Source: an uncultured virus (IMG/VR IMGVR_UViG_3300027627_000004) | Taxonomy: Duplodnaviria; Heunggongvirae; Uroviricota; Caudoviricetes | IMG/VR virus record: IMGVR_UViG_3300027627_000004 | DNA length: 64,000 bases | Reading direction: 5' to 3' (one strand) | Notes under the pieces: model-generated | What the model was told of the DNA's origin: nothing | Seen by the model: the letters and a program-made list of their open reading frames with translations, nothing else | The model's database searches: none | Part shown: in pieces, positions 90-17,064 of the stretch | Layout of the letters: the number at the start of each line of letters is the position of its first letter | Position numbering within the stretch: position 1 is the first letter of the stretch | Translations under genes and position numbers: made by a program

Positions 90-776
90 TTAGGACGCAG
101 GTATTTGATTTTTCTCGATTCTTGATTTAGCTATTTCAAAATATTTTTCATCTTTTTCAATCCCAATAAAATTACGACTTGTATTGATACAAGCTACACC
201 TGTTGAGCCAGATCCCATAAAAGGGTCGAAAACCGTTTCTCCTGTAAGGGTGCTGTTTTGTATATAGTATTCCAATAATTCTGTGGGTTTTTCTGTTGGA
301 TGTTCTTTAAATTTGGGTAAATTAAAGCGGTGAATTGTTGCAGAACTTGGGTTATAAATCCTGCGAGCTTTGCCCTTATATCCCAAAATAATATACTCTG
401 CATTTTTTCTATACCAGCGATTTACAAATCCTTTATTCCCTTTATCCCATACCAAAAGATTGTGTGTTCTAAATTTTGATTTTTCAAATAACACTAAAAA
501 CTCTGATAGATTCAGGAAGTTAGTAAACCAATATATATGAGATTGTGGAACCATTTTTTGATAAAGTAGGTCTAAAAACTCAACAGTAAATTTAAAATCG
601 TTGTGGATAAATATTTTTCCGTCGTTTTTCCAATCTCCACCTTTATAAAAAGTGCTTGCTGTTTTGGTTTGTCCACCAGAAATTACACGGTAAGGAGGAT
701 CGGTGACAATACAGTTGATGCTATTGTCGGGGATTTTCGCCATTTCAATAAGGCAGTCGCCAAGATAAAGCTGCAT
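90..776 (-). CDS. DNA methyltransferase, N6-A/N4-C beta class
   Basis: DPPY catalytic motif, HPTEKP, DPFMGSGSTG SAM-binding motif, GIEKD. Confidence 0.95.
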   Translation of the reverse strand: MQLYLGDCLIEMAKIPDNSINCIVTDPPYRVISGGQTKTASTFYKGGDWKNDGKIFIHNDFKFTVEFLDLLYQKMVPQSHIYWFTNFLNLSEFLVLFEKSKFRTHNLLVWDKGNKGFVNRWYRKNAEYIILGYKGKARRIYNPSSATIHRFNLPKFKEHPTEKPTELLEYYIQNSTLTGETVFDPFMGSGSTGVACINTSRNFIGIEKDEKYFEIAKSRIEKNQIPAS

Positions 777-2054: not shown

Positions 2055-2234
2055 ATGAAATTTATAAAAAAAGTTACTGCTCAAAAACTTATTTGGGCAC
2101 CTACTAAGGTACATCAAAAACTAAAACAAGTTGTAGACCTTGCAAATCTAGAGCTAGGTAATACTGTCTTTTTGCAAGCTACCCGTGAATTTCATGATGA
2201 TGTGCCCCAATTTTCACGCTTTTCTAATTCATAA
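2055..2234 (+). CDS. Small hypothetical protein with putative head-targeting leader (possibly truncated)
   Basis: Starts MKFIKKVTA; AGATT motif at 2043. Confidence 0.5.
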   Translation: MKFIKKVTAQKLIWAPTKVHQKLKQVVDLANLELGNTVFLQATREFHDDVPQFSRFSNS

Positions 2235-2342
2235 ACTAATTCCTTTACTCGCGCACCTACCAAATCTTGTGCTATCAAGCGTGCATCGGTTTCCGAAATT
2301 GTTAGATAAGTACTTCAAAACAAACTTACACTAGACAATATA

Positions 2343-2819
2343 ATGGCTAAAATTTATAAACTTGCCGAAGAAAGTATTGATGAATGGGAAGATCAGCAGA
2401 TTGAAGAAATTCAAAATAGTATTATAAAAGATCCAGTAGGCTACTTTGTAGATGAAGAAGGAATGTCTATAGAAGATCTAGCTAAAACAAATTTTATGCA
2501 AATTGATTACACCACTCGCCTCAAGATTCAAGCATCGAGGGCGGTGCATTTCTTAGCGTTCATTGTCGCGCAACGCGGTCTGGACGAATTTGAGCAGTTT
2601 CTTATAGCGCCCGATGCGTATCATTTCGTAAGGTGCGATGTCACCAAGAAGTGCGTTTGGCGTCCGAAGCCAAAGCACGACCTTCTGCGGATCTTGAAAG
2701 TACTCACCAATCAATTTGAGACGAGGCAGCACTTCTGCCCTATCGCCTGCCGTGGCTTTTATTTCTTTAAGCAATTCCAGGAGCGTAAGTCACTAACTCG
2801 CCTCAAAGATTCAGGTTAA
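2343..2819 (+). pseudogene. Acidic phage protein apparently interrupted at ~2515; the rest of the ORF is likely antisense read-through
   Basis: AT-rich acidic first ~57 aa, then an abrupt shift to GC-richer DNA that encodes a recognisable domain on the opposite strand. Confidence 0.4.
2553..2774 (-). CDS. MbcA/ParS/Xre-type antitoxin toxin-binding domain (possibly 5'-truncated)
   Basis: YFQDPQKVVLWLRTPNALLGDIAPYEMIRIGR matches the WLxxPNxxLgxxxPxxL signature. Confidence 0.75.
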   Translation of the reverse strand: MLKEIKATAGDRAEVLPRLKLIGEYFQDPQKVVLWLRTPNALLGDIAPYEMIRIGRYKKLLKFVQTALRDNER

Positions 2820-2841
2820 AACCTGATTTTTGAGGTACTTC

Positions 2842-3618
2842 ATGGATACTACATACCCTTGGCTTATGCTCGGTGACTGCTTAGAAAAAATGAAAACAAT
2901 ACCGGATGGCTCGGTAGATATGATTCTTTGCGATTTGCCTTATGGGACAACTGCCTGCAAATGGGACCGAATTATTCCTTTTGAACCCTTATGGGAACAG
3001 TATTGGCGTATGATTAAAAAAAACGGAGCGATTGTTTTATTCGGAAGTGAACCGTTTTCTTCTCATTTAAGACTCAGCGCAATGAGATATTTTAAATATG
3101 ATTGGATCTGGCAAAAGGATAAAGCTGGAAATTGGGCAGCATGTAAACATCAGCCTATGAAGACGTTTGAAATAGTTAGCGTCTTTTCTAAAAAAGGTCA
3201 TAATTTTTTTCCGCTTATGGACACAAGACCTGTTGAGAATCGGAGAGTCAACAAGCCCCGTCAAAACTCATCGGAAACAAACGTGTCCTTAAAAGACTTC
3301 TATACAGCAGAAAGCGTTGGAAATAGTGACCAGAAATATCCTATCGCAATTCGTTATTTTAATTCAGTTAGAAATAATGTCCATCCAACCCAAAAGCCCG
3401 TCGCTCTTTTAGAATACTTCATTCGCACCTACACCCTCGAAGGTGAAATCGTCCTTGATAATACAATGGGATCTGGGTCAACGGGTATTGCCTGTGTCAA
3501 TACAAATCGAAAATTTATTGGTATTGAGAAAGACGAGAAATACTTTGGAATAGCTCAAAGCCGTATTCAATCCGCTATTGATGAAAAGTCCCAGTTACTT
3601 TTCTCTGATGTGTCTTAG
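2842..3618 (+). CDS. DNA methyltransferase, beta class (cassette copy 1)
   Basis: [21 protein letters not shown]; start set at ATG 2842 after RBS gaggt. Confidence 0.95.
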   Translation: MDTTYPWLMLGDCLEKMKTIPDGSVDMILCDLPYGTTACKWDRIIPFEPLWEQYWRMIKKNGAIVLFGSEPFSSHLRLSAMRYFKYDWIWQKDKAGNWAACKHQPMKTFEIVSVFSKKGHNFFPLMDTRPVENRRVNKPRQNSSETNVSLKDFYTAESVGNSDQKYPIAIRYFNSVRNNVHPTQKPVALLEYFIRTYTLEGEIVLDNTMGSGSTGIACVNTNRKFIGIEKDEKYFGIAQSRIQSAIDEKSQLLFSDVS

Positions 3619-3629
3619 CCCGAAAAGCT

Positions 3630-3850
3630 GGAAGCCAAATGGAAGCCAAAAGGAAGCCACGAGGGGTGACGAAGGGTGATATTGAGTGATGGTTGAGGGA
3701 AAAGCGTCTTGATAACCTACTAATTCCTTTGGTTTTAAGTTTCAGGTAGTTATCGTAGACTAACGGAAAGAGCTTTAAGTATTTTGGCGGATTCGGTTCA
3801 ATTTCAATGATTTCAATGACTTGAATATCAAGGAAGCCACCAGGAAGCCA
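3630..3850. repeat. attP-like site R1 (3x GGAAGCCA - core tggcggattcggt - 2x GGAAGCCA)
   Basis: GGAAGCCA at 3630, 3641, 3652, 3832, 3843; core 3785-3797; closely similar to R2. Confidence 0.85.
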
Positions 3851-3859
3851 GCTACATTG

Positions 3860-4315
3860 TTATTCTACTAAGTTCTCTAATAACCAAGCTGCCGATTTCC
3901 TATCTTGAGGAACGGAAGGTGGACCGTAATCTCTCGCTATTTGTTTAAATTCTTTTATTGAGTAGCTTTTATCTTCCACCCATTCTTCTGAAGCAGCATT
4001 AAATACCCCTGTAGCATCTATGCCTTTGCCCATCACCTCGACATAGGCGTGAATCGTACCTGTACCGTAGTTTATTTTTAACTTTGGGGAGTAACCTTGT
4101 TTTTTAAGTAAGTCGTAAACAGCTAAAGCCATCCCCCAACAACCACCAGTTAGGAAATAATCCTTAATCCATCCGATGCCATTTACAACTTTTGGTAGTT
4201 TTTTAAAATCATGAAGTTTTACTTTTCTAGTATTAAATTTACTTCCAGGTATCCCATAGCCAATCAAATCTGCCATCACTGAATATTTTTTTTGTACTTT
4301 GACTAAGAAGCTCAT
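3860..4315 (-). CDS. Putative virion-packaged Cys-His-Asp (papain/transglutaminase-like) protein
   Basis: Leader MSFLVKVQKKYSVMAD; GGCWGMALAV...IHAYVE...IDATG triad pattern; RBS aggag; AGATT motif at 4342-4346 on the minus strand. Confidence 0.6.
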   Translation of the reverse strand: MSFLVKVQKKYSVMADLIGYGIPGSKFNTRKVKLHDFKKLPKVVNGIGWIKDYFLTGGCWGMALAVYDLLKKQGYSPKLKINYGTGTIHAYVEVMGKGIDATGVFNAASEEWVEDKSYSIKEFKQIARDYGPPSVPQDRKSAAWLLENLVE

Positions 4316-4356
4316 TTTTTCTTTTCTCCTTACATCAATAAAATCTTAGGGGATGG

Positions 4357-4578
4357 GGAAGCCAAATGGAAGCCATTTGGAAGCCACGAAGGGTGACGTG
4401 GCGTGATATCGGGTGATGGTTGAGGGAAAAGCGTCTTGATAACCTACTAATTCCTTTGGGTTTAAGTTTCAGGTAGTTATCTTAGATTAACGGAAAGGGC
4501 TTTAAGAATTTTGGCGGATTCGGTTCAATTTCAATGATTTCAATTGCTTGAATATCAAGGAAGCCACCGGGGAAGCCA
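4357..4578. repeat. attP-like site R2
   Basis: GGAAGCCA at 4357, 4368, 4379, 4559, 4571; core 4512-4524. Confidence 0.85.
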
Positions 4579-4633
4579 GTTCTCACTAACTCACCTCAAA
4601 GATTCAGGTAGAAACCTGATCTCTGAGGACTTT

Positions 4634-5398
4634 ATAAATACTATATACCCCCGACTCATGCTCGGTGATTGCCTAGAGCGCATGAAAGAAATACCGGACG
4701 GCAGTGTTGATATGATTTTGTGTGATCTGCCCTACGGAACGACCGCTTGTAAGTGGGACGTAGTAATACCGTTTGAACCACTTTGGGAACAGTATTGGCG
4801 AGTACTAAAGCCGAATGGAGCTGTCGCCTTATTTAACACCTATCCTTTTGGTTTTTATTTAGGGATTAGTCAGATTGAATATTTCAGATACGAGTGGATT
4901 TGGAAAAAAACTATAGCCACTAATTTTCTGCATGTAAAAAAGCAGCCAGCAAAAAAACACGAACTAGTATCAATTTTTTATAAAAAACAACCCACATATA
5001 ACCCTCAGATGGAAAGCGGAAAGCCGTATAAAGATACTATACGAAATAGAACTGAGGGGTATTTTAATGGCAGAAAAACAAGCAAAATTGCTATTGATAA
5101 TCAAGGTTACAGATTCCCTTGTACAATTCAAGAATTTAGCAATGGAAATAATAAGAACGTACACCCCACCCAAAAGCCTGTCGCACTACTTGAATACCTA
5201 GTAAAGACGTATACAAATGAAGGCGAAATCGTACTTGATAATACGATGGGCAGCGGTTCGACGGGTGTAGCCTGTGTTAATATTAACCGTAAATTCATTG
5301 GCATCGAAAAAGACGAAAAATACTTCGAGATAGCCTCAAACCGTATTCAAGCGGCTATTGATGAAAAATCCCAATTACTTTTCTCGGACGTGTCTTAG
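4634..5398 (+). CDS. DNA methyltransferase, beta class (cassette copy 2)
   Basis: [21 protein letters not shown]; position homologous to the copy-1 ATG is ATA (4634), next ATG 4658; the ORF-track start 4544 lies inside R2. Confidence 0.9.
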   Translation: MNTIYPRLMLGDCLERMKEIPDGSVDMILCDLPYGTTACKWDVVIPFEPLWEQYWRVLKPNGAVALFNTYPFGFYLGISQIEYFRYEWIWKKTIATNFLHVKKQPAKKHELVSIFYKKQPTYNPQMESGKPYKDTIRNRTEGYFNGRKTSKIAIDNQGYRFPCTIQEFSNGNNKNVHPTQKPVALLEYLVKTYTNEGEIVLDNTMGSGSTGVACVNINRKFIGIEKDEKYFEIASNRIQAAIDEKSQLLFSDVS

Positions 5399-5409
5399 TC
5401 CGAAAAGCT

Positions 5410-5497
5410 GGAAGCCAAATGGAAGCCAAAAGGAAGCCAAGAGACGTGACGAGGGTGTGATGCTGAGTGATGGTTGAGAGAAAAGCGTCTCGGTAAC
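5410..5497. repeat. Truncated att-like site R3 (left arm only, no core)
   Basis: GGAAGCCA at 5410, 5421, 5432; similarity to R1/R2 ends at ~5497. Confidence 0.8.
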
Positions 5498-5690
5498 TAA
5501 GTATCTTTTAGTATTTTCCGTATAACCAATAAGATTAATTATCCTCATATGAAGGATACGAAATGGGTTTTCTTTGAAAATTAGAACATAAATATATTAC
5601 GGTATATCGGGCGGGCATAGGACGAATTTCGTGGATGAAACTGATAAATCTGCTTTTGAGATTAAATGCTTTTAACGGAGGGTAATAACA

Positions 5691-6086
5691 GTGAAATTCT
5701 TAAGAAACATTCAGGCAAAATACGGGATTGCCGCAGATGGAAAACAGAAGAAGTTTCTAGGCAAGACGGCTCGGGATGTTCCTTTCGTCGAGTACGCGAC
5801 GAAAGACTCACCGTTTGCGCTCTACATCAACAAGTTGGGGGAGTATGGAGTCAACATACACGTCTATCAAGCGTTCAAGCGGAAAGATTCGTACAAGGCG
5901 ATGCAGAAGGTAGTTTCCAAGGCTTGGAACTTTCACGGCAAACAGTCATCAACTCTGCACATGATACAAGCTCTACGCTTGGGGAACCTATTGATGACCC
6001 TCTATGCATCTCACCCAGATGCCCCTCCAGATTCTCGGGAAGCGGCGACGAAGTGGGCGCATGACCAACCCAAGGTGAAGGATTAG
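5691..6086 (+). CDS. Hypothetical protein with putative head-targeting leader
   Basis: GTG start after ggaggg; MKFLRNIQAKYGIAAD; AGATT at 5659. Confidence 0.7.
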   Translation: MKFLRNIQAKYGIAADGKQKKFLGKTARDVPFVEYATKDSPFALYINKLGEYGVNIHVYQAFKRKDSYKAMQKVVSKAWNFHGKQSSTLHMIQALRLGNLLMTLYASHPDAPPDSREAATKWAHDQPKVKD

Positions 6087-6109
6087 CATATCAAATCCCG
6101 CTTGGTGAT

Positions 6110-6290
6110 CGAGGGCGAAATCATCCTTGATAATACTATGGGCAGCGGTTCTACAGGTATCGCCTGTGTGAACACCAAGCGCAAGTTTATTGGGATTGAG
6201 AAAGACGAAAAATACTTCGGGATAGCTCAAAACCGTATTCAGGCGGCTATTGATGAAAAGTCCCAATTACTTTTCTCAGATGTGTCTTAG
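6110..6290 (+). pseudogene. 3' fragment of cassette methyltransferase (copy 3)
   Basis: [16 protein letters not shown]...[14 protein letters not shown], same C-terminus as copies 1 and 2; catalytic half missing. Confidence 0.9.
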
Positions 6291-6301
6291 CCTCAAAAGC
6301 T

Positions 6302-6483
6302 GGAAGCCAAAAGGAAGCCAAAAGGAAGCCACGGTGGGTGACGAAGCGTGATATCGGGTGATGGTTGACCGAAAAGCGTCTTGATAACCTACTAATTCCT
6401 TTGGTTTTAAGTTTCAGGTAGTTATCGTAGACTAACGGAAATTGCGTTAGTTATTTTGGCGGATTCGGTGAGGTTTTAAACCC
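6302..6483. repeat. Hybrid att site R4 (left arm + core + tRNA-3'-like fragment)
   Basis: GGAAGCCA at 6302, 6313, 6324; core 6457-6469; similarity to R1/R2 stops exactly after the core; minus strand reads ...aacctcaccgaatccgcca. Confidence 0.75.
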
Positions 6484-6674
6484 AAACAAATTGTTTGGCT
6501 GGGGTGGCATGATTTATTTTATATCACGCAAAATTTACCACGGAGATCCGAGAGTTATCAAGCGGGGTTTGCTAAGAATGATGCGGAGAAAATGCAACTG
6601 CTAGATATGCTTAAGAATAACGAAAAGTAATCAAAAAACCTCTTTAGCTCGCGGCTTTTCATAGGGCGTTCTAG

Positions 6675-7160
6675 GTGGTGCAAGTATTCATAAGTTCGGG
6701 GGGACTTATGAGCTTAAATACGGATTTTGCGCTGTTTTCAGACCTTGAGATAAAACAGCATTTAAAACTACTCGGCATCACTAACCGCGCCGACTGGGAA
6801 AGTATATGTCCAAACTCAATGAAAGAGGCTTCTAAACGAGGAGATAAACGGTTTTACAAAATCACCGAGGGTGTGGCTTTACTGCGAAAGCCTGCAACGA
6901 AAAAACGCAAATTCATGAATGGACACAACCTGCCTTTGAATTATTGCTCAAGACATAAAATACTCAATATTAGTCAATTAAAACAGATGAATCCAAACAT
7001 GCTAAAATACTGCCCTTACCCTGATGGCAGTGAGTTCTGGCAAGCTGTCCGAATTATGCTCCGAATGGATAAATTGCCGAACGATTTCGATCCCATTGAA
7101 TCGACACTGCCTTTAGGCATTGAACACTTAAGGGAGCTAGGCTTTTCACCACCAAAATAA
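6675..7160 (+). CDS. Hypothetical protein of the integrated element (start may be ATG 6708)
   Basis: 161-aa ORF convergent with the HTH gene; gggggac before ATG 6708. Confidence 0.6.
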   Translation: MVQVFISSGGLMSLNTDFALFSDLEIKQHLKLLGITNRADWESICPNSMKEASKRGDKRFYKITEGVALLRKPATKKRKFMNGHNLPLNYCSRHKILNISQLKQMNPNMLKYCPYPDGSEFWQAVRIMLRMDKLPNDFDPIESTLPLGIEHLRELGFSPPK

Positions 7161-7709
7161 GCGTCTCGGCTTATTAGATACTATGTTTTCACCTAGTTTT
7201 TCGCGGCAAGCATCGACGGCAGCGGCTAGTATGTCGTTCTTACTTAAGCCCTCAACATCAAGCGTAGCACCGGCTCGCTGCGGTGCGGGTAGCATTTTAA
7301 GTGTATTTAACTCTGCGGTTAAAGCATCCAGCTTATCTTGAATAGCATCTAATTGCCTGGAAGACGCTTCACGCTCGGCTTTGAGGGATTGCCTTAGCTC
7401 GCTGTTTTCTTCGGTCATCCGATCCATGAGCGTTTTCATTGTCGCCACAACTGTTCCGACAAGGTCGGATGGCTGTTCGGACGGTTGTTTGTTGCTGCGT
7501 TCGGACGACCGTTTAGCTGTTTTTGGTGTGCGGAGTTTTCCCTCGGCACCTAACCTCACGACTAAATCGGATACCTCTGCCAAATCGACACAGGCGGTAT
7601 TGCCAGAAATGGTTTTTTTGAGCGCAGCCTCTTTAACGTAGATCGAAAGCCTTGACCTTGAGATGCCTAAGCGACGCGCAGCTTCCGAAATCGTAATCAT
7701 TTCAGGCAT
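7146..7709 (-). CDS. HTH + coiled-coil DNA-binding protein (Xis/MerR-like HTH, plasmid-type)
   Basis: ITISEAARRLGISRSRLS HTH, long coiled coil, C-terminal PRRLFWW; start coupled to the upstream TAA (TAATG). Confidence 0.75.
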   Translation of the reverse strand: MPEMITISEAARRLGISRSRLSIYVKEAALKKTISGNTACVDLAEVSDLVVRLGAEGKLRTPKTAKRSSERSNKQPSEQPSDLVGTVVATMKTLMDRMTEENSELRQSLKAEREASSRQLDAIQDKLDALTAELNTLKMLPAPQRAGATLDVEGLSKNDILAAAVDACREKLGENIVSNKPRRLFWW

Positions 7710-7867
7710 TAATCTGCTCCATCCGAATCTGCGGGTGGGCATCGGTCCAAGAACGATTCTGTCTCATCGTCTTCATCCGGCTCATCAGTTTTTAGGTTTA
7801 CATCGTATAAATCATACGACACTGAGACAATTTTGTATTTATTTTGAATCTTAGTTTTCCAGGTCAT
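7709..7867 (-). CDS. 52-aa acidic peptide with phage-like leader
   Basis: Strong RBS ggaaggagagg before ATG 7867; MTWKTKIQNKYKIVSVSYDLYDVNLKTDEPDEDDETESF. Confidence 0.6.
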   Translation of the reverse strand: MTWKTKIQNKYKIVSVSYDLYDVNLKTDEPDEDDETESFLDRCPPADSDGAD

Positions 7868-8077
7868 AGCCTCTCCTTCCGGCATTGAATCTTTAGCTGC
7901 CTGAAGCCATGCAATCTTTTGGCTGTCTGAAGCCATGTGAACCTCTGGTTGCCTGAAGCCGAATTAACCGCTTGGCTGGCTTTAGTCTCTCATCCCTACC
8001 CTTCGGGTGGGGTACCCCCGTTCAAATCGATTCTGAGAGGTTTTAGAGCCTCCTGAGAGGGTAAGCTCTGTGTCTCA

Positions 8078-8336
8078 TGGGGGGTGACTTTACGCTGGTG
8101 GGGGGTGACTTATCCCCCTGTGGATACCCCATACCCCCACTACTAGTTGCATAAAACATACTCCTATATATCTCCTAAGAGGGTCCAAAACCCTTGAGGC
8201 TCATGGCTTTAGCGGGGTTTTTATGGCTTCAGGCGACTAATGAATTGGCTTCAGGCGACTAATGAACGGTCGATTTTTGGCTTCAGGCGACTATAGTATT
8301 GGCTTCAGGCGACTAATGAAAACGGACTTATGCACA
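8078..8336 (+). promoter_or_regulatory. Iteron-type replication origin
   Basis: tggcttcaggcgacta x4 (8224, 8246, 8278, 8300); ggggggtgactt x2 (~8079, ~8100); DnaA box TTATGCACA 8328-8336; inverted partial iterons at ~7899-7960; directly upstream of Rep. Confidence 0.85.
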
Positions 8337-8350
8337 GCTAAGGGGTTGAT

Positions 8351-9253
8351 ATGGCAAACGAAGGGTGGCGAAAAGGACTACGCCAAGGTAAGTACCAACC
8401 TGACCTTCCCGCTAGGTGTGCCGTTGAAATGAATATCGTAGGCGTCCCCACCTGCGTACTGAACTCCAAGTACACCAAGAGTGCCACGCAGATTAGCTAT
8501 CGCTGGCGCGGTGCTCAGGGCGATGCCTTGTTCACATTTTCTAGGACAGGCGATGATCCATTCCCCACGGCTCAACACGCATTGTACTTAGATATTTTGC
8601 TAGCTATGTTTGCAAATAACTTCAATGAAGACGGGGTATTACGCTTTAGATTTTCCGATGTACTGCGGAATGCCGGTAAGCCAGCAAATAGCTCTGGAGC
8701 CAGAAAAGCCATAAAAGAGGCTATTTATCGCTATCAGAAGTGCCATTCGTTTTGGCAGTGCAGTTTTGACGGTGCCGACCAGAGTTGGGCAGGCTCATTT
8801 ATCTCTGAAAGTACGCTTTTTGACGATGAAAACCGAAACCCTCGGAACAGTTCAGACCGTTTAACATGGCATAAAGTGCGCTTTCATCATTTGATCGTCG
8901 ATTCGATGAACGCAGGAAAAATACGTCTTTTCTACAGTGAAATGCTTAAAAGCGGTCTAAAACATGACACCTATATCGTTTATCGGCATCTTAGGCGATT
9001 TACTGATAAAGGCGAAATTAAACGGTCAATTCAACAACTTGTGTCTGCCTTAAACTATCAATCCAAGCGCAGCGACCGCTTTAAAATATGGCTGTCCGAA
9101 CGGCTGTGCGAACTACAAAAAGCAAATTACCTACAGGCGTTCACGATTCATGATAGCTGGGTGTCCGTGACACTCACGCCAGTCAGTGCGAACGGCACCA
9201 ATCGCCCACTTAAGGCGTTAGTTGGTGATTTAGTCGAGCACACATCGTTTTAG
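8351..9253 (+). CDS. Plasmid-type replication initiator (RepA/TrfA-like winged helix)
   Basis: PFPTAQHALYLDILLAM...LRFRFSDVLRNAGKP...RKAIKEAIYR pattern; preceded by iterons. Confidence 0.75.
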   Translation: MANEGWRKGLRQGKYQPDLPARCAVEMNIVGVPTCVLNSKYTKSATQISYRWRGAQGDALFTFSRTGDDPFPTAQHALYLDILLAMFANNFNEDGVLRFRFSDVLRNAGKPANSSGARKAIKEAIYRYQKCHSFWQCSFDGADQSWAGSFISESTLFDDENRNPRNSSDRLTWHKVRFHHLIVDSMNAGKIRLFYSEMLKSGLKHDTYIVYRHLRRFTDKGEIKRSIQQLVSALNYQSKRSDRFKIWLSERLCELQKANYLQAFTIHDSWVSVTLTPVSANGTNRPLKALVGDLVEHTSF

Positions 9254-9282
9254 CGTTCAATAAAGACATATTTTTTGAACGC

Positions 9283-11376
9283 TCATTTTGCTGTTGGTGT
9301 CTCTTGAGCGACAAGGGTTTCATCGGTGTCTTTTGCCTTGGGTTTTTTGAACGGCAGAGACACTTCCTTTGCCGATATCTTGATGCCTCTTGAGGGATCG
9401 AATTTTTGAATCGGTAACCGCTCCATGCGTTTTAAGCGGGCGGTTTCAGTCAAGCCGATTGCCGTTCGTAATTTTGGAAATAAATCATATTCCCAAAATT
9501 TTAATACCTGTTCTTCGGCATCTACAACTTCATGAGATTGATATTCCCAAATTTTGAGGTTGTAAACACGCTGGCAAAACTGCGCCAGTATAAAGGTATC
9601 CCAAACATTGTCATCTTTATAAATATCGCCATCTGGAAAAACAATTTCAGGCTGACGCAAATACTCAATACCGCGCATCAATGGATCTCTGATATCAGCA
9701 AAAGATCCTGCATCGGGCGGCATAGCCTTTACATAAAACTCTGCTGTCGTGAGCGAAGTCTTATGCCCTAGCCGTTCTTGAATAGCGTTTAATTCAACAC
9801 CACAAAATGAAAGCATGGTCGCACAAGTGGTACGGAAATCACGAAGCGTAGCGACTGGAGTATGTGTATAAGATGCAATCCGCTGTAATGTAGGCGATGC
9901 CTTCATTACGCTGATGGAAGTCACTGCGGGTTTAGAAAACCAATCTAGTAATTTTTCTTTATTAGATAGGTCTAAAAATTCTTTATTTAAAAGAATTAAA
10001 CGTACAACCGTTGAGGTTCTTGGGTTTGCTAAATATTTAGGGTCGTGTCCCGCGAGTTTACCGCTCAACAATTTCCCGTTACTAAAATAGATTTTTCCTG
10101 ATTCTTTATCCCAATGCTCAGGAGTGATTTTTGCCAATTCTTCCGGTCGCAGACCAGAGGATAATGCTAAGGCTAGTAAAGCCGCGTGACTTATCGTAGG
10201 TGCCTCGTTAAAAATAGCGGTTATCTCGGACAAGCGTAAACAGCGAAAGCCTTGACCATGAGATGTTTTACCGTTTTTTAGGCTCTCTTTTTCAAAGAGA
10301 TTACGATATTTTTCTATCGTCCTAGTTGAATTAGCTGCCCACGGAAATACTGATTGATAGTCTTCTAAGGTTCCAATTATGTTCATAAAAATAGCGAGTA
10401 ATTTTTTCAATGTTGATTTTGTTTTTGGTCCAGACAAGCGTTTTCTTTTATACGTGCTGGAGCTGATGGTCGTATCGCATAAAGCCTGAGTCCAATTTTT
10501 TATGGATATTTGCAGTGGTCCAGCTTCAAAAGGAATTTTGACATCGCCAATTACTGCATAAATGGCTTTAACCCTCGACTTGTCTGTTGTCGGTTTTTCT
10601 AGCAAATATAAGGCAAATAAGAACCCAAAGGTCATTTGCTTTTGTAGTTGATTAAGGTCATTTTTGGTTAATTGACTGGAAAAAAACTTGTCTTTAAATT
10701 CTTTTGCTTTTGATGTGTAAGAGGATATAGGCTGGATAGCCTGTAATGAATTGATACCGTGATCTTCGAGCTTTTTTACTGCCGATTTATAGGTAATTTC
10801 TGTTAAGTTTTTTACGGTAAAAGGATCGGAGCGAGATTTCGTTAGCTTGTCGATCTTATGTATTCTTAGTGTGTATGAGTTAATTTCAGAGAGTAAATAC
10901 CACTCATACCTACCGTTATCTGTGACACCTTTTTCTAGATATTTCGCTGGCGCGTGGAATGTTTTTGGAGATTTTACTTCTACCTGTTTTCCCCATTTTT
11001 CAGATTTTTTTGTCTCAATAGCTAACTCGATTTGTTCCCAACGCTGCTCCCAGTCTGGGTGAGATTCGGAACCTAGTTCATCGAGCAATTTATTTTTGTG
11101 TCGCTGTTTAAGTTGGGCGATAGCACGTTGCGCTAAAAGGCGTTCACGTTTTTTTTGGTCATCTAAGTCAAGACTAGGACGACCGCGTTTTTCTCGACCT
11201 ATCTTAGAAACCATTTGAGGATCGGTAGTCAGCCTAGCAAACCCTGTGTCCCGCTTAAGACAGTAAGAACAGACAGTGCGCCCATTCCTAAGAACCGTAG
11301 GTGTACTATTGCCGCGCTCCGTTATGTTTTTACACCCTGCTCCATAGGTACAGTAAGTGATGATGGCGCGTCCCAT
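9283..11376 (-). CDS. Large tyrosine recombinase/integrase with N-terminal Cys cluster
   Basis: SGLRPEEL, LRDFRTTCAT, LGHK, FYV catalytic motifs; CxxxxxC...CxxC N-terminus; adjacent to the tRNA att. Confidence 0.9.
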   Translation of the reverse strand: MGRAIITYCTYGAGCKNITERGNSTPTVLRNGRTVCSYCLKRDTGFARLTTDPQMVSKIGREKRGRPSLDLDDQKKRERLLAQRAIAQLKQRHKNKLLDELGSESHPDWEQRWEQIELAIETKKSEKWGKQVEVKSPKTFHAPAKYLEKGVTDNGRYEWYLLSEINSYTLRIHKIDKLTKSRSDPFTVKNLTEITYKSAVKKLEDHGINSLQAIQPISSYTSKAKEFKDKFFSSQLTKNDLNQLQKQMTFGFLFALYLLEKPTTDKSRVKAIYAVIGDVKIPFEAGPLQISIKNWTQALCDTTISSSTYKRKRLSGPKTKSTLKKLLAIFMNIIGTLEDYQSVFPWAANSTRTIEKYRNLFEKESLKNGKTSHGQGFRCLRLSEITAIFNEAPTISHAALLALALSSGLRPEELAKITPEHWDKESGKIYFSNGKLLSGKLAGHDPKYLANPRTSTVVRLILLNKEFLDLSNKEKLLDWFSKPAVTSISVMKASPTLQRIASYTHTPVATLRDFRTTCATMLSFCGVELNAIQERLGHKTSLTTAEFYVKAMPPDAGSFADIRDPLMRGIEYLRQPEIVFPDGDIYKDDNVWDTFILAQFCQRVYNLKIWEYQSHEVVDAEEQVLKFWEYDLFPKLRTAIGLTETARLKRMERLPIQKFDPSRGIKISAKEVSLPFKKPKAKDTDETLVAQETPTAK

Positions 11377-11573
11377 AAGCTCCTCCTCTTGCTTTATGGG
11401 TATATATCGGTTGTTTTTGGAAATAACTTTAATTTTTTTATATCATTTTAACCCCCTAAAACCGCGTGATAAAATAAAAACATCTGTTATATTAGTTGGT
11501 TATAGACTAGTTTTTTTGTATATGTTTTAATCGGTAAGTATTTAAAATCATTGAGAAATAGGTAAAAAGGTGG

Positions 11574-11648
11574 TGGCTGGGGTGAAAGGGATCGAACCTT
11601 TGAATGCCGGAATCAAAATCCGGTGCCTTACCACTTGGCTACACCCCA
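11574..11648 (-). tRNA. tRNA-Gln(TTG)
   Basis: tggggtgtagccaagtggtaaggcaccggattttgattccggcattcaaaggttcgatccctttcaccccagcca; cloverleaf, TTG anticodon, encoded CCA. Confidence 0.97.
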
Positions 11649-11657
11649 AAAAAAAGT

Positions 11658-11701
11658 AACCCCGATAAATATTACTTTATCGGGGTTTTGAGTTTTGTCA
11701 A
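11658..11701 (-). promoter_or_regulatory. Sigma70-like promoter and hairpin upstream of tRNA-Gln
   Basis: Minus strand TTGACA-16 nt-TAAAGT; inverted repeat aaccccgataaa/tttatcggggtt. Confidence 0.5.
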
Positions 11702-12438
11702 GTCTCTACTTGAAATACGGAGGTAGCGTATTTTCCCGATTTTTGAAGGTTTACTCCTTTATCACTTAATTATTTTTCAAAACTTATTCAATTTTGAATT
11801 GTAACTAAGCTGTTTTGTTAAACCAGTGTTCTTCTGGATAGGGACATTGAGAAATTTCTCACTCATTTAAGTCCCTCACTTGATAATCGGGTAAATCGTC
11901 AAGGCGACCGCAGGTTACGGGTAACCAAATTACATTCTCCTGCGCTTTTATCTGTTGCAACAGATACCGTACTTATCCCATTTGATTAAGTGAGTGTTCT
12001 CTCATCCAAGCGCGAAGACAATCTGCTAAGGCTGTCTTTTTCATCTTGGCTTTTGATTCTTAAGGAATCCGCGACTATCCCCCTAATCATATACATAATG
12101 AGTAATATGTATACTAGCCTTACGGCTCAGGGTGTAACACTTTTACATCTTGTACGGATGGTTTATCGTGAAAGTTGTACTCTTTCTATAAGACCTTTAT
12201 CTTATATTTTTCAAGTCAGTGACTTGAGGTAACGCTGCTTTTACGGTCTGTAAGCCTCATAATATTTGTTACCAAATATTATTGTAATAAGTAGCTATCT
12301 TATTTACTGGCTCTCTCAACAAGAGAAACCTATTCTCTTGAAAGCAGGGTAATTTTTTTATTTCGTCTACCCTCGAAAATCTGCATCGCTGCTGACAAAA
12401 ATGTTTTACGTCAGACCTTCAGACTTCGCAAGAGGAAA

Positions 12439-13044
12439 TTACTTATTCCCCAAAAGTAATTCGTCACTGAGTACAGTACCAAAATCCTTAATGGCTGCTT
12501 TTTGTACATCAGTAAGCATGACATCTTCAAACCAAGAGACAACTAAGAAGCCTATGATCTCATGTTTTATATTAAAGACAGCTCGACATAATGCACATTT
12601 AGCTCCACTATAACGCATTAATCCTTTAAAATAACTGTCCTCTTTCATTTCATTAGAATCTATATAAAAATAATTATTTTTAAGTAAATTGTCTATAGTC
12701 TGGAGCAGGTAGCCCATAGGTATATTTTGTAATGATACCCCCCCAATCTGCACAGCTACTCCACGCGCACTGACAAAGTGAGTTAGCGATACCTTTTGGA
12801 TAGAGACACCGGAAATAAAGGAATTACCATTGTGGAATTGGTAAAGCTGCACACGGTCGGCATCGTAGTAGCTACGAATCTCAGCTAAAAGTTGACGTAG
12901 CATTAGGTTTTTATTAATACATACTGATTCTGATTTATTTTGAATCCAGTTTTGAATTTTTGACGCAACAAAAGCTAACAGTCCGATAACTATTCCTGTT
13001 AATACTTGTCCTACACTGTTCCAGAAATCAGACATCTTAATCAC
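12439..13044 (-). CDS. Putative T4 gpT-like holin (N-terminal TM + GAF-like domain)
   Basis: Single N-terminal hydrophobic helix, then DADRVQLYQFHNG...IIGFLVVSW GAF-like pattern. Confidence 0.55.
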   Translation of the reverse strand: MIKMSDFWNSVGQVLTGIVIGLLAFVASKIQNWIQNKSESVCINKNLMLRQLLAEIRSYYDADRVQLYQFHNGNSFISGVSIQKVSLTHFVSARGVAVQIGGVSLQNIPMGYLLQTIDNLLKNNYFYIDSNEMKEDSYFKGLMRYSGAKCALCRAVFNIKHEIIGFLVVSWFEDVMLTDVQKAAIKDFGTVLSDELLLGNK

Positions 13045-13315
13045 CTCTCATATGAGAGTGTTCTTTAGCGTGGCATTTAGAGCAAATAGTCTTTAGGTTT
13101 AACAAACTGTCCCAACCGGATTTACTCTTACTTACAATATGATGGGCATGTAAAACGGCAAAGCCTCCAGCCTGGATACCTAACGCACCACACTCCTGAC
13201 ATTTAAAACCGTCACGGTCTTTGCATTGATCGGCTAATTTACGCCAATCATTCCTATTGCCATTACAATACTCTGGGAATTTATATTTCTTCCTTTTAAA
13301 GAAAGGATCACGCAT
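13037..13315 (-). CDS. Small HNH endonuclease
   Basis: RDGFKCQECG...LHAHHIV...NLKTICSKCHAKEH. Confidence 0.9.
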   Translation of the reverse strand: MRDPFFKRKKYKFPEYCNGNRNDWRKLADQCKDRDGFKCQECGALGIQAGGFAVLHAHHIVSKSKSGWDSLLNLKTICSKCHAKEHSHMRGD

Positions 13316-13354
13316 ATAATGTCTCCATAAAGATTAATCTTAATAGGAGATCAA

Positions 13355-13519
13355 ATGGAACAATTACTAAAATATTGTGAAGACCGCATCAAACAACTAT
13401 CCGGTCAATATGACCATGCCCTATATGAAAAATGTCCATACGAAATTGAACTAGATGGAAAAATAAGTGCTTATAAAGATATTATAGATTGGGCTAATAG
13501 AAAAATTATGGACGCTTGA
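13355..13519 (+). CDS. Small hypothetical protein (54 aa, below ORF-track cutoff)
   Basis: RBS aggag, ATG 13355, MEQLLKYCEDRIKQL...; palindromic AGATTAATCT at 13331. Confidence 0.6.
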   Translation: MEQLLKYCEDRIKQLSGQYDHALYEKCPYEIELDGKISAYKDIIDWANRKIMDA

Positions 13520-13586
13520 TTACCAGTATTCTTAAGATTAAGTTAAGGAGTAGTTTTTGTGCTGTGAAAATTTAAAGGAGGTTAAA

Positions 13587-13790
13587 ATGATTCAGCTAAC
13601 ACCGAGAGCAAAAGAGAAATTAGATCCAGTCATTAACAAAACTAAGGCAGACCTTAAACCTTTTATGCATTCCCTACGCTACTGCGTGATTTGTGTGGCT
13701 TGGTTTTTGACATTACCGTTTGTAGCGGCTGCAAAATTATTAGGTCCTTATAGCGAGAAAATTAAGCCCGAAGTCAAAAAAGGCGAATAA
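13587..13790 (+). CDS. Small membrane protein
   Basis: RBS aaggagg before MIQLTPRAK; one hydrophobic segment. Confidence 0.6.
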   Translation: MIQLTPRAKEKLDPVINKTKADLKPFMHSLRYCVICVAWFLTLPFVAAAKLLGPYSEKIKPEVKKGE

Positions 13791-13839
13791 TTAAATATAC
13801 CCAAATTGGGTTCAATAACACCCAATTTGGGTTAAAATA

Positions 13840-13868
13840 AAAAAGGGAGACATCCATGTCTCCCTAAA
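13840..13868 (-). terminator. Intrinsic terminator hairpin
   Basis: aaaaa-gggagacat-cc-atgtctccc; near-duplicate at 14591. Confidence 0.7.
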
Positions 13869-14179
13869 TGACTTCCAAGGTGGTTCAATTAGGTACGATT
13901 ACTCGCGAGCAGTTTAATTACGCGGGAAAGTGTTGGACCTTCAAAAGTTTAATCAAGATGAAGTAGCCAAGGAGCTTGGTCTGTAGTTAACTATCTTGTG
14001 GGACGGCGTGGGAAGCTGGGGTCCGTTCAAGCCGTCTCTTTACGAGATGATAGCGGTAGTTCCAATCCCTGGAGACACGCAATGGCTACTAAGAGTAGGT
14101 ACTTAACCACCTACCGCCAAATAACCGGCTGGGGTAGCGCCCAATGATTCCGTAGCTTGGTATTTCTCTTGATCGGTCA

Positions 14180-14428
14180 TCATAAGCCTAGCTCCTTGGC
14201 TAATGCATCACGATCTAGCCTGGTTCCAACTAGTGCGTTGTCCCACGCCTCATTAAACTTCTCCCTGGTAATTGCCACAGTCCTTGGCTCAATCTCCCAA
14301 TCGTCGGCGAGTATTTCTTCTCTGGTCAGGTCCATCATCTCGTGTTCAATCATCCCGCTGATGACTTTTTCAGGCTTTGATTTTCTGAATATCCATTCGT
14401 TTTTTTTAAGAGCTTCGATCAGGTTCAT
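14180..14428 (-). CDS. Small hypothetical phage protein
   Basis: MNLIEALKK...EEILADDWEI, a common small phage protein pattern; RBS gagg. Confidence 0.7.
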   Translation of the reverse strand: MNLIEALKKNEWIFRKSKPEKVISGMIEHEMMDLTREEILADDWEIEPRTVAITREKFNEAWDNALVGTRLDRDALAKELGL

Positions 14429-14590
14429 ATTTTTCCTCAAAATAAAAGATGCTTTAGTTGACTGGGGCAGAGCATGGTTAAGCCAATATAATTAGGTCCA
14501 AGTCAAGGCACACCTGTAAACTTAGAAGTTGGTAGCGTTCCTTACCTACTTCTTTGATTAAACTACAATGCTTTAGAAAGTCCTACTCAT

Positions 14591-14621
14591 AAAAAGGGGA
14601 GACATGTATGTCTCCCCTAAA
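14591..14621 (-). terminator. Intrinsic terminator of the 14640-15338 gene
   Basis: aaaaa-ggggagacat-gt-atgtctcccc, T-tract on the minus strand. Confidence 0.75.
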
Positions 14622-14639
14622 TAACTAATTTTACAGATA

Positions 14640-15338
14640 TTAAGCGTTGAATTCGACGCCAAGCATTTGTGCGCTGCTCGAAGCCAAAACGCCAACTGCT
14701 GGGACGTGAACTACACGGCTACCAGGAATTTCGACAAGACCGGTATCAACGACCATGCCATCAGCGCCTAAATATACTGGACCGGTGTGGCTTGCCCAAT
14801 CAACTGAGGTATCATAGTAGTTAAGGTAGACGCGACCTTTGCCCTTGCCTACGCCGCACTGACCAACCAAGTTAGCAGAAGGATAGTTGCTTACAGCTTC
14901 TTGGAAAAGTTGTTTAGCTTGAGCAACCGTTAGGTTGAAGCGGTAGTGAACTTTCAAGGTCAAACCTGCTTGACCAGCAGCGAAGGTAACTGTACCTGCT
15001 GCATTGTCAACGAATGCTGGAGCGACTACGGCACCGGCAGAATTTAAAGCCAAAACCGAACTATTGACCAAATTGTTGTACGACAGCGAAACTACGTATG
15101 GACCAGGAATGGCAGGGACCGTTACTAATTCAACATTAGCTGCGGTTTCATGGGACAATTGACGAAATACAGCGAAGCCTGCAAAAACGTCACCACCAAG
15201 ACCTGTAGATGGTTGAACGTGCTCAAGACCGTCAACCAGAACGGAAACTAGACATTGACCTTCGTCGATGACTTCTTTGCCTGGGACGAGCGGTTGGCTG
15301 TCTACGTGCGAGTACCACGTGCGTTTTAAATCAATCAT
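14640..15338 (-). CDS. Putative head decoration/structural protein
   Basis: V/G/A-rich beta protein (EVIDEGQCLV...QPSTG...FAGFA), own AGATT motif (15398) and terminator. Confidence 0.5.
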   Translation of the reverse strand: MIDLKRTWYSHVDSQPLVPGKEVIDEGQCLVSVLVDGLEHVQPSTGLGGDVFAGFAVFRQLSHETAANVELVTVPAIPGPYVVSLSYNNLVNSSVLALNSAGAVVAPAFVDNAAGTVTFAAGQAGLTLKVHYRFNLTVAQAKQLFQEAVSNYPSANLVGQCGVGKGKGRVYLNYYDTSVDWASHTGPVYLGADGMVVDTGLVEIPGSRVVHVPAVGVLASSSAQMLGVEFNA

Positions 15339-15465
15339 TGTGTAAAATCCTTTCAGAAAATTTATTCAAGAGCGATCATATATCGCCTCTGTAATTTAAT
15401 CTATACATAATATTTCATCTACAAAATAAATTGCTATTTTTTACATTGGTTGCTAAAATTTAGTT

Positions 15466-16200
15466 ATGCTAACTATTGGTACAAAAGTAAATTATTGGAC
15501 TGTATGTAATTATACAGGAAATATTAAAGGTCGCAAATACTGGCATTGCCGCTGCATTTGCGGTGTTTACCGTGATGTTCTACAGTCACAATTAACTTGT
15601 AACCGTACTAAAAGTTGTGGCTGTAGAAAAGGTGAAGATCTTACTAATAAACGGTTTGGTCATCTAGTAGCTTTAGAACCTGTCACTAGGGGTGATGGAG
15701 TTCGTCTGTGGCGTTGTCTATGTGATTGTGGTAAAGAAACTCTAATAAGAGCAAATTCATTAAAACAAAATCATACTACCTCTTGTGGATGTTTTGGTTT
15801 AGAAAAAAGAAAAACTTTTCTTAGAAAAAAAAGAAAGAAAAAAGGGCTAGCTGCTATTAGTAGCTATTATAGTCGCTATAAGCATAGTGCTAAAAAAAGA
15901 AAATATGAATTCTCTTTAACTAAAGAAGAATTCATCGAATTAATTTTACAAAAATGCCATTACTGCGGTATGGAACCTCAATCAAAAATAAAAAAAACAA
16001 GTAAATTTTATTCCAAAGAATGGACAGAAGCATCTAAAATAGCTGCCTATGGAATAGACCGCGTAGATAACTCAAAAGGATATACAACAGACAACGTGGT
16101 TGCCTGTTGTAAAATATGTAATCATGCAAAGACCAATTTAACACTTGTGGAATTTAAAGACTGGTTCACAAGGCTTTGTAAATTTCAAAAATTATACTAA
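15466..16200 (+). CDS. Free-standing HNH-type homing endonuclease
   Basis: Two WxCxCxCG...SCGC repeats plus CHYCG...GIDRVDNSKGY..DNVVACCKICN. Confidence 0.85.
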   Translation: MLTIGTKVNYWTVCNYTGNIKGRKYWHCRCICGVYRDVLQSQLTCNRTKSCGCRKGEDLTNKRFGHLVALEPVTRGDGVRLWRCLCDCGKETLIRANSLKQNHTTSCGCFGLEKRKTFLRKKRKKKGLAAISSYYSRYKHSAKKRKYEFSLTKEEFIELILQKCHYCGMEPQSKIKKTSKFYSKEWTEASKIAAYGIDRVDNSKGYTTDNVVACCKICNHAKTNLTLVEFKDWFTRLCKFQKLY

Positions 16201-16623
16201 GAACTTTTTAGAAGTCGCTTTTATAACTTTATCATTAGAATTTAAAGTCGTATATTTTACTTCAACAGCAGCATCATTAATAGCCACACTCCATGTAACG
16301 TCTACACCGGCTGTCTCAGTATAAAGATCTGTTATGCTTGGTGCAGAGCTCCCATCAGCACAAATAAATAATTTTCCCACTCTAGTCTTGTGAGACGTAT
16401 TTTCCCGTATAGAGTATTCTACAACGATACCAGAATATATAGTCTTATCAAATGTAAAAGGGGTAAAAACCCGATTTGTACTAGAGTGGGTTAAAGTGTC
16501 AGTTATGAATACTTCTTCACAAAAGTCTGTATAGCCAAGTTTAGAATTGACTTGATCCCAAGAAAGAGAAGTTTTCTTGTATTGATTATTTGCACCATCA
16601 AAGGAGAGTAGTTTTAATGACAT
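16192..16623 (-). CDS. Putative virion structural protein
   Basis: T/S/V-rich beta-strand protein; AGATT motif at 16661. Confidence 0.5.
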   Translation of the reverse strand: MSLKLLSFDGANNQYKKTSLSWDQVNSKLGYTDFCEEVFITDTLTHSSTNRVFTPFTFDKTIYSGIVVEYSIRENTSHKTRVGKLFICADGSSAPSITDLYTETAGVDVTWSVAINDAAVEVKYTTLNSNDKVIKATSKKFLV

Positions 16624-16681
16624 AGACAGTCCTCATAAAAGTTAAGGTATAAGCAAATATAATCTTAGTACTAGAGAATTA

Positions 16682-16802
16682 AGGGACAGATATGTAGTGT
16701 AGAGGAGCGCACCAGTTAGCCATCGCAAGATGTCCGAGGGGTCGGATGATGTGCAACCACACTACCGAATACTTATATGGGGGAAGTATAACAAGTACCC
16801 TA
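16682..16802 (+). ncRNA. Candidate structured ncRNA
   Basis: GC-rich intergenic island: gtagtg/cactac closing stem, catc-GCAA-gatg and tccga-gggg-tcgga hairpins. Confidence 0.35.
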
Positions 16803-16842
16803 AGCTACGCTATTGCCTAGATTAAAAATAAAAGAGGTAAAT

Positions 16843-17064
16843 ATGAGACTTTATTTAGGTAACTTGCCTGAAAATTTTACAGAAAATGAGTTATGTACTA
16901 TTTTAAATAAATACTCACTTCTAGAACTGGATAAAAATGACTCTTTTGCGATTGTTAGAGTTGAGCAGGGACAAAAAGCAATAGATGACTTAAATGGTCT
17001 TGTTATTAACGGAAAAGAACTAAAAGTTTTGCCTGCTGTAGATAGACAAAAACAATGTGCTTAG
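16843..17064 (+). CDS. RRM RNA-binding protein
   Basis: RNP2 LYLGNL, SFAIV, AIDDLNG..INGKELKV; RBS gaggt. Confidence 0.85.
   Translation: MRLYLGNLPENFTENELCTILNKYSLLELDKNDSFAIVRVEQGQKAIDDLNGLVINGKELKVLPAVDRQKQCA

Follow-up and report, generated by a model that had tools for sequence, protein, structure and literature searches.

A repeated attP-like unit between single genes in the accessory region of a lake phage genome

The DNA considered here ("the window": 64,000 nucleotides of the uncultured virus IMGVR_UViG_3300027627_000004, a tailed-phage genome of lake-metagenome origin) carries, between positions 3630 and 6469, four copies of a 222-bp non-coding unit, R: two whole, two truncated. 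Single genes lie between the copies, as in a string of cassettes, and there is no recombinase gene inside the array. R is laid out like the attachment site of a temperate phage, arm-core-arm; a half-copy in another contig runs into the 3' end of an intact tRNA-Ser gene, and a half-copy in the window ends exactly after its core, next to sequence that resembles the same tRNA. The anatomy of R, its pattern of conservation, its tRNA junctions and the variability of its surroundings among relatives and in lake populations are observed directly. The reading favored here, at a probability of about 0.45 and consequently held with reserve, is that R is, or derives from, a lambda-type attachment site at the 3' end of a tRNA-Ser gene and that the array arose by tandem integration.

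The four copies share one orientation and were placed with a profile (222 model positions) built from the whole copies. R1 (3630-3851, plus strand) and R2 (4357-4576, plus strand; 92% identical to R1) are whole. R3 (5410-5512, plus strand; model positions 1-104) is a left half only, cut in the left arm, and in type is nearest to the copy of another contig, L057 (see below); R4 (6302-6469, plus strand; model positions 1-168 of 222) comprises the left arm and the core. Read from left to right, a whole R consists of three GGAAGCCA octamers spaced 11 bp apart, three GTGA at 10-bp spacing (by reading the sequence of R1: 3666, 3676 and 3686), ~95 bp of further sequence, the 16-nt core TTTTGGCGGATTCGGT (3782-3797 in R1), an AT-rich stretch with TTCAAT repeats, and two more GGAAGCCA. 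The core is the same in R1, R2, R4 and the copy of the related contig L060; it is placed off-center (168 bp from the left end of the unit, 54 bp from its right end). The identity between R1 and R2 is even along the unit (91.7% in the left part, 92.7% in the right part), and the outermost GGAAGCCA octamers are the exact start and end of their homology.

These octamers are heavily concentrated: GGAAGCCA occurs 18 times in the window, against 1.46 expected (a count of 18 is reached in 0 of 100 shuffles), and 16 of the 18 lie within 3630-6331, in groups of 3+2, 3+2, 3 and 3 at 11-bp spacing. A repeat finder returns a 215-nt family with three copies, at 3630, 4357 and 6302, the first two separated by 727 bp. 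The profile, the repeat finder and the octamer count confirm what an earlier note on this DNA had reported, a non-coding, repeat-bearing unit in four copies, with three amendments: the length given there as ~220 bp is 222 bp, bounded exactly by the outermost GGAAGCCA; R3 is indeed truncated, with its end at ~5512 instead of 5497; and the repeat that precedes R1, R3 and R4 extends further than had been noted, into the 3' end of a methyltransferase gene. The attP site of phage lambda is the structure that R recalls: arm-core-arm, with phased repeats, a size of ~220-240 bp and an asymmetric core. In R, likewise, arm-type repeats stand on both sides of the core within 222 bp.

Half-copies of R adjoin tRNA or tRNA-like sequence at two junctions. 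In contig L066, homology to R (model positions 1-162) reaches position 381, and an intact tRNA-Ser(GCU) gene occupies 375-464 on the minus strand; R consequently ends 7 nt inside the 3' end of tRNA-Ser. The R core and this tRNA end agree at 12 of 15 positions, so that the core shares sequence with the 3' end of its proposed target. The second junction is in the window itself: R4 parts from R1 and R2 exactly after the core, and the core and its flank (6457-6490, minus strand) resemble the acceptor and T-arm end of the L066 tRNA-Ser, probably as the remnant of a decayed tRNA gene. The resemblance of the ~25 nt past the R4 core, scored beyond the shared core, is reached by 11 of 5000 shuffles; in a control using the right half of R1, the corresponding figure is 1780 of 5000. 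Junctions of the type left arm-core-target (P-O-B') are accordingly seen twice, in L066 and at R4. A half-site that meets the 3' end of a tRNA gene at a short core common to both is the signature of an integrase attachment junction; taken together with the occurrence of the same octamer in both halves of the unit, the half-R/tRNA junctions suggest that whole R is the P-O-P' form. The attP-like grammar that the earlier note had discerned is thus borne out by the dimensions of R, the 7-nt overlap in L066 and the tRNA-like remnant at R4.

The relatives of R are few. Scans of metagenome contigs and species genomes with a triple-iteron pattern yielded 68 loci, and R extends beyond the iteron triplet in 4 of the 70 loci compared: L060, L049, L057 and L066. 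L060 and L049 share the phage backbone of the window: stretches 1464-2091 and 11393-20486 align with L060 at 97.8-99.7% (1464-2091 corresponding to L060 4514-5151, and 11393-14073 to L060 8807-11487). Between these matched blocks lies a hypervariable island (2092-11392): its 9.3 kb are swapped in L060 and L049 for 3.6 kb of other sequence, in surroundings that are otherwise 98-99.7% identical. The 3.6-kb replacement contains a gene for the anti-restriction protein ArdA, three genes without a known family, and a single whole R, whose left half is very different from that of R1 (67% identity) and whose right half is near-identical (87-89%). In L057, an antitoxin-like helix-turn-helix (HTH) gene and one other gene, both unrelated to those of the window, are followed by the left half of R at the contig end. 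In L066, a gene bearing an N-terminal leader (described below) is followed by an L060-type left half of R (75% identity) and then by tRNA-Ser(GCU), beyond which lie phage-like genes for a single-stranded DNA-binding protein and a sigma factor, unrelated to the window. These differing contexts mean that the gene order around R is not fixed; a fixed order among relatives, which the earlier note had named as speaking against its reading, is not seen.

Elsewhere the searches came back empty. R1 has no match among isolated phages. GTDB species genomes contain 19 triple-iteron loci, none with homology to R past the iterons. IMG/VR has no match to the triple iteron, nor to a pattern of two iterons plus GTGA; a 21-nt word from the right arm finds two chance matches there, and the 16-nt core finds 33 loci, all unrelated, many in coding context and none with a tRNA.

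The genes of the array are two for DNA methyltransferases, a methyltransferase remnant and two for small proteins. A promoter-like leader (2790-2835, plus strand; family D5) and DNA methyltransferase 1 (N6/N4 type; 2866-3618, plus strand) stand to the left of R1. From R1 to R2 there is one 151-aa cargo gene on the minus strand (3860-4315), of no family found, which opens with the N-terminal leader MSFLVKVQKKY. Directly after R2 comes a second copy of the promoter-like leader (4583-4628, plus strand; D5, the two copies 89% identical), and with it DNA methyltransferase 2 (4658-5398, plus strand), in the R2-to-R3 interval. R3-to-R4 holds a 131-aa cargo gene (5691-6086, plus strand; leader VKFLRNIQAKY; likewise of no family found) and the remnant of a third methyltransferase, its C-terminal 62 aa (6102-6290, plus strand). 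Gene content thus upholds the earlier description of single genes between the copies and of units without a recombinase. Methyltransferases 1 and 2 are 67.4% identical in nucleotides and 61.8% in amino acids, the lowest values being found mid-gene (52-56%). A repeat family, D1 (3437-3736, 5217-5516 and 6109-6408), takes in the last ~190 bp of the methyltransferase gene ahead of R1, R3 and R4, so that three of the four R copies are modules of the form "methyltransferase 3' end plus R".

How might such an array have been put together? R would be the P-O-P' site of a tyrosine integrase whose target is the 3' end of a tRNA-Ser gene: the GGAAGCCA repeats, three plus two, would be its arm-type sites, the three phased GTGA and the TTCAAT repeats may be sites for accessory proteins, and TTTGGCGGAttcGGT would be the core of the attachment site. 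Small DNA circles bearing attP would integrate one after another at a phage-borne tRNA-Ser gene, each bringing with it one accessory gene (for a DNA methyltransferase or for a small protein with the leader), and these integrations would leave whole copies of R between the cargo genes and a terminal half-site joined to the tRNA. R4 would be that terminal half-site, its tRNA partner having since decayed. The right side of the array, with intact R1 and R2 and with R4 abutting a tRNA-like remnant, fits successive integration of this kind. Later, homologous recombination and deletions between R copies, methyltransferase ends, promoter leaders and N-terminal leaders would have reshaped the array; such reshaping would account for the lack of a left junction, the off-core cut of R3 and the remnant of the third methyltransferase. 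The recombinase would be supplied in trans, and the 697-aa recombinase encoded at 9283-11376 is a candidate only. Protein binding, site-specific integration, circles and an acting integrase are, for R, what we infer from this arrangement.

Several observations weigh against integration as the origin of the array. Junctions of the reciprocal type (B-O-P': target flank-core-right arm) occur in none of the 70 loci compared, nor in the window. At the left end of the array, homology to the methyltransferase-2 unit begins only at the promoter-like leader, at 2790. R3 is cut inside its left arm, not at the core, and the methyltransferase remnant shows off-site deletion or replacement. A reading by eye of the sequence around 3782-3797 (no formal test) finds no convincing inverted core-type repeats. 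R was not found in one genome each of 185,579 prokaryote species or in IMG/VR, and no bacterial attL or attR is known. The left arms of R1, R2 and R4 share variants mosaically (R4 is R2-like at 3675-3685 and R1-like on both sides), a pattern suggestive of gene conversion between the copies; whatever built the array, homologous recombination has clearly been active in it. Homologous or unequal recombination also fits equally well with the repetition of methyltransferase 3' ends along with R. The candidate recombinase presents difficulties of its own: its structure shows core-binding (CB) and catalytic domains, the N-terminal ~150-220 residues being without a recognised arm-binding fold; it adjoins a tRNA-Gln gene (198 bp away), not tRNA-Ser; and it is absent from the 18.5 kb of L060 examined. 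Finally, the arm motif is found again 1.5 kb away, in the iterons of an origin-like region: the heptamer GAAGCCA occurs 29 times in the window, 16 times in R and six times in the origin region, and GGGTGAC occurs seven times, three of them in R and two in the origin. With both motifs common to R and the origin, the repeats of R may bind a Rep protein and not an integrase.

Could R then be a shuffling device that needs no integrase? On this account R serves a hyperplastic early region as a conserved spacer with a regulatory or protein-binding role, homologous recombination between its copies shuffles the neighboring genes in the manner of the PeSL cassettes of T4-type phages (an early promoter plus a terminator stem-loop), and the likeness of its core to a tRNA is a historical accident. 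We think this somewhat unlikely. It has in its favor that window/L060 breakpoints also fall at other conserved sequences (a shared N-terminal leader immediately precedes the left one, at 2091), that methyltransferase 3' ends are repeated along with R and left-arm variants are mosaic, and that R2 sits upstream of genes on both sides, 41 bp from a minus-strand gene and immediately ahead of the methyltransferase-2 leader; the PeSL precedent includes mini-circles (PMC2839356). On the other hand, it leaves the 7-nt overlap with tRNA-Ser in L066 and the tRNA-like flank of R4 without explanation; three different right-hand continuations begin within ~10 nt of the core; and neither a good sigma-70 promoter nor a good terminator is present in R, which contains a single promoter-like match (9 of 12) and weak hairpins of terminator type, the totals for the region not exceeding those of shuffles.

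The sharing of motifs with the nearby origin suggests another account, in which R is a binding array for the neighboring plasmid-type initiator (a secondary origin, a copy-control or handcuffing site, or a partition-like site) that has been multiplied in the island. The 300-aa protein encoded at 8351-9253 (plus strand) resembles initiators of the RPA/Rep3 winged-helix class by predicted structure only (template-modelling (TM) scores of 0.78-0.80 against RPA clusters); the 20-nt iterons of the origin open with TGGCTTC, the reverse complement of the R motif; and the right half of R, AT-rich with short repeats, would suit such a role. Yet R and the origin region are otherwise not alignable (263 of 300 and 46 of 300 shuffles reach the best local scores), and the repeats of R are 8-mers at 11 bp where ~20-mers at 22 bp would be expected of a Rep array. 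L060, L049, L057 and L066 possess R, and there is no rep gene in the DNA of these that was examined; in one lake run, X2, the rep contig has a depth of 4.9, compared with 37-42 for the R array; and the tRNA junctions, once again, are not accounted for. This explanation is accordingly quite improbable. Either the same protein family reads R and the origin, or the likeness is partly coincidence.

A tandem segmental duplication of "methyltransferase plus downstream spacer", followed by divergence and insertions and leaving R without function, would produce the threefold repetition of the methyltransferase 3' end with the left half of R (D1) and the repeated leader ahead of both methyltransferases (D5), and is very improbable indeed: an unrelated minus-strand gene precedes R2, R adjoins unrelated genes in L057, L060 and L066, and R is 92% conserved where the methyltransferases are 62-67% identical, the reverse of what is expected of a neutral spacer.

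Two simpler identities for R were tried and set aside. The first, a non-coding RNA or hairpin element, is ruled out by folding and by the lack of an Rfam match: RNA folding of R gives no signal (z-scores of 0.16 and -0.82), nor does folding of single-stranded DNA (0.15 and 0.59), and in Rfam the tRNA alone attains its gathering score, with nothing up to E = 1 in 2700-8400. The second, a neutral spacer left by duplication, is disfavored by the 92% identity of R1 and R2 in both halves, as compared with 67% (DNA) and 62% (protein) for the methyltransferases; the unrelated gene ahead of R2 and the much greater conservation of R than of cargo likewise mean that R is not a simple segmental duplication. 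Both identities had been named in the earlier note as ways in which its proposal might fail, and neither is upheld by the folding scores, the context of R2 and the conservation of R.

Placing R among known systems helps to delimit what is claimed. In the tycheposon islands of Prochlorococcus, successive integrations at one tRNA site push older elements inward (bioRxiv 10.1101/2020.12.28.424599). The R array resembles lambda attP and such accretion at tRNA islands in its arm-core-arm sites, its core at a tRNA 3' end, its half-sites and the partial tRNA at its junctions. It differs in having its tRNA target on a phage genome and not on a chromosome, in the smallness of its units (0.7-1.05 kb, with one gene and no integrase), and in that whole attP-like sites, not just short core repeats, divide the units.

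PeSL cassettes (PMC2839356, PMC4122927) combine an early promoter with a terminator stem-loop, undergo homology-driven recombination, and can form mini-circles. R resembles them in being a short conserved non-coding element that flanks variable, non-essential-type cargo in a hyperplastic region and that marks the boundaries of insertions, deletions and replacements between close relatives. In contrast to PeSLs, R is 222 bp long, lacks a clear promoter or terminator, and has phased, putatively protein-binding repeats and a tRNA-derived core. With the iterons of plasmids and phage-plasmids R shares phased direct repeats and the 7-mer of the neighboring Rep-type origin; it differs from iteron arrays in the spacing of its 8-mers (one helical turn), in having no adjacent rep gene, and in its tRNA junctions. 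Repeats of ~17-22 bp at ~22-bp spacing next to a rep gene, which characterize such arrays, are found in the window at 8224-8319, upstream of 8351-9253, and not in R.

The comparison with integrons, which the earlier note had put foremost, holds in part. Like an integron, the R array consists of single-gene units separated by an element resembling a recombination site, with the recombinase outside and with cargo that varies among close relatives. Unlike attC, R is not an imperfect palindrome and does not fold as a single strand; the cargo has promoter-like leaders of its own and, in the case of 3860-4315, lies on the minus strand; no attI/Pc platform was found; and the recombinase of the window differs from IntI in falling far below NCBIfam cut-offs (37.7 bits with the sole NCBIfam model that mentions integron integrases, for which the cut-off is 220). 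The attP-like R and the variable gene order speak for the integron-like reading; the off-core cut of R3, the D1 repeats that accompany R, the mosaicism of the left arms and the motif shared with the iterons speak against it. An active integron-like system in the array is doubtful. We would call unlikely, to much the same degree, the specific proposal that the phage's own tRNA gene is a place where sub-kilobase circles, each made up of a single gene of anti-restriction type and an entire lambda-type attP, are taken up, stacked and traded by a recombinase acting in trans, possibly one from the neighboring integrase/Rep module, whose origin shares the arm motif. A full-text literature search found no report of such an array in phages, and PeSL cassettes and tRNA-island accretion are the nearest precedents found.

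Lake populations bear on the variability of the array. They were compared through assembled (Logan) contigs of four lake runs; these contigs break at R, as repeats cause them to do. A 3.7-kb stretch is represented in runs of three studies, one of them possibly the source of the window, with 0.92-0.93 of the sampled words found. Other sequence continues past the core (at 6472) in X2 and X4 contigs and past the right end of R2 (at 4571) in an X5 contig; an X2 contig joins, at 3780, an L060-type left half to an R1-type right half. In X2 and X4, an R3-type left half is followed by 30 other letters and then by sequence identical to 6421 onward; this is either an allele that lacks 5500-6420 or an additional copy of R from beyond the window. 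Parts of the 3.7-kb stretch have no cover in X4-X6. One X2 contig contains a joint that goes back 797 positions, from 4571 to 3775, with 57 letters on its shorter side, and several joints that skip forward have sides of 28-30 letters. All of these joints are compatible with assembly-graph overlaps, with other R copies or with other strains, and they are not counted as circles or empty sites. Depth in X2 is 5-29 over 6256-11260, as against 37-42 for the array and the backbone, so that the integrase/Rep module is present in only part of the population.

Why should a 222-bp spacer be of concern? Phages must keep changing their counter-defence genes, and the rapid swapping of such genes is largely credited to homologous recombination. 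If whole attP-type sites do stand between single methyltransferase and leader-protein genes in a series that ends at a phage tRNA gene, then phage genomes, too, are subject to site-specific recombination, which is how bacterial genomic islands and integrons are built, and mobile cargo would find its landing pads in phage tRNA genes. Under the specific cassette proposal above, lake phages would draw on an integron-like store of counter-defence genes, shared at the level of the population and passing from one unrelated phage backbone to another. The 222-bp site, the tRNA-Ser target and the candidate recombinase are parts of this proposal that can be tested. Should homologous recombination alone prove responsible, R is still a conserved shuffling element of a new kind, with no fewer than four unrelated gene contexts to its name.

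To the right of the array, 6470-11392 has the appearance of a plasmid-like module for integration or lysogeny, one that is polymorphic among these phages; the module is missing from L060 and L049. It includes a gene for a 198-aa HTH protein (7146-7742, minus strand) that has weak, below-cut-off likeness to excisionase-type and plasmid replication DNA-binding proteins. The iteron-type origin region (7899-8319) contains four 20-nt direct repeats (8224-8319, spaced 22/32/22 bp) just upstream of 8351-9253, three inverted partial copies of the 20-nt repeat at 7899-7961, and two GGGTGAC, at 8082 and 8103. The Rep-like protein itself has no Pfam, NCBIfam or PDB sequence match and no relatives in isolated phages, plasmids or IMG/VR, nor is it similar to a 317-aa protein of L060. 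The junction at the end of R4 (6461-6477) agrees at 15 of 17 positions with the center of the origin region (8028-8044), a score reached by 8 of 1000 shuffles.

The tyrosine recombinase gene (9283-11376, minus strand) is 2.8 kb from R4; searches for relatives of its product returned its own sequence only, with none in isolated phages or IMG/VR. Its neighbor, the phage tRNA-Gln(UUG) gene (11574-11648, minus strand), has its 3' end facing the island, and an 11-nt exact copy of that 3' end stands at 6496-6506 (minus strand), 27 nt to the right of the R4 core. The adjoining tRNA-Gln and this copy suggest that the recombinase may have tRNA-Gln, not R, as its own target. The copy (6496-6506/11574-11584) may represent the direct repeat at the far end of an element that inserted itself at tRNA-Gln; a simple picture of that kind fits badly, because L060 shares 11393-11573 with the window. 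In all four lake runs there are contigs that share tRNA-Gln alone (11574-11651) with the window and differ from it on either side, and in X2 the depth of the tRNA-Gln bin is raised (66, vs. 37-39); the same tRNA-Gln is evidently present in other genomes of these lakes, possibly that of the host.

The N-terminal leader of the non-methyltransferase cargo, pointed out in the earlier note, is real and confined to the island. Its pattern, M-[S/K]-F-[L/I/N]-x-[K/R/N]-[V/I]-..-K-[Y/L], opens seven genes of unrelated sequence: at 2055, 4315 (minus strand) and 5691 of the window, at 5115, 5377 and 8117 (minus strand) of L060, and at 102 (minus strand) of L066. One of these genes is the ArdA homologue of L060; the leader is found nowhere else in the 64-kb window, and it is one such leader that the left breakpoint between the window and L060 (2091) falls just past. 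The leader may act as a targeting signal common to these proteins, in packaging or injection for instance, or it may mark a hot spot of recombination. As to the methyltransferases, an upstream ATG of methyltransferase 1 (2843) aligns with ATA in methyltransferase 2 (window 4640-4660); the in-frame ATG further in, common to both (2866 and 4658), is the likelier start.

Elsewhere in the window, genes for a portal, virion proteins, tail-fibre-like proteins and a helicase occupy 14-60 kb; the portal is only ~29% identical to those of jumbo and other isolated phages, and the structural region has no match among isolated phages. Next to the R of L060 (L060 8140-8400), a 60-bp unit is tandemly repeated about four times; with 76-85% identity and in the opposite orientation, it matches repeats at window 41420-44364, which sit inside two large genes (40759-44453). 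The array belongs to a left-hand accessory region that also contains a fourth methyltransferase, a CAP-domain protein, the tyrosine recombinase and tRNA-Gln. The fourth methyltransferase (90-776, minus strand) has 36% amino-acid identity to the other two and is part of a 1.4-kb segment (66-1465) with two small genes besides; this segment is absent from L060 and L049 and is bordered by a 27-nt inverted repeat (66-92/1439-1465, 96% complementary) that itself contains a hairpin.

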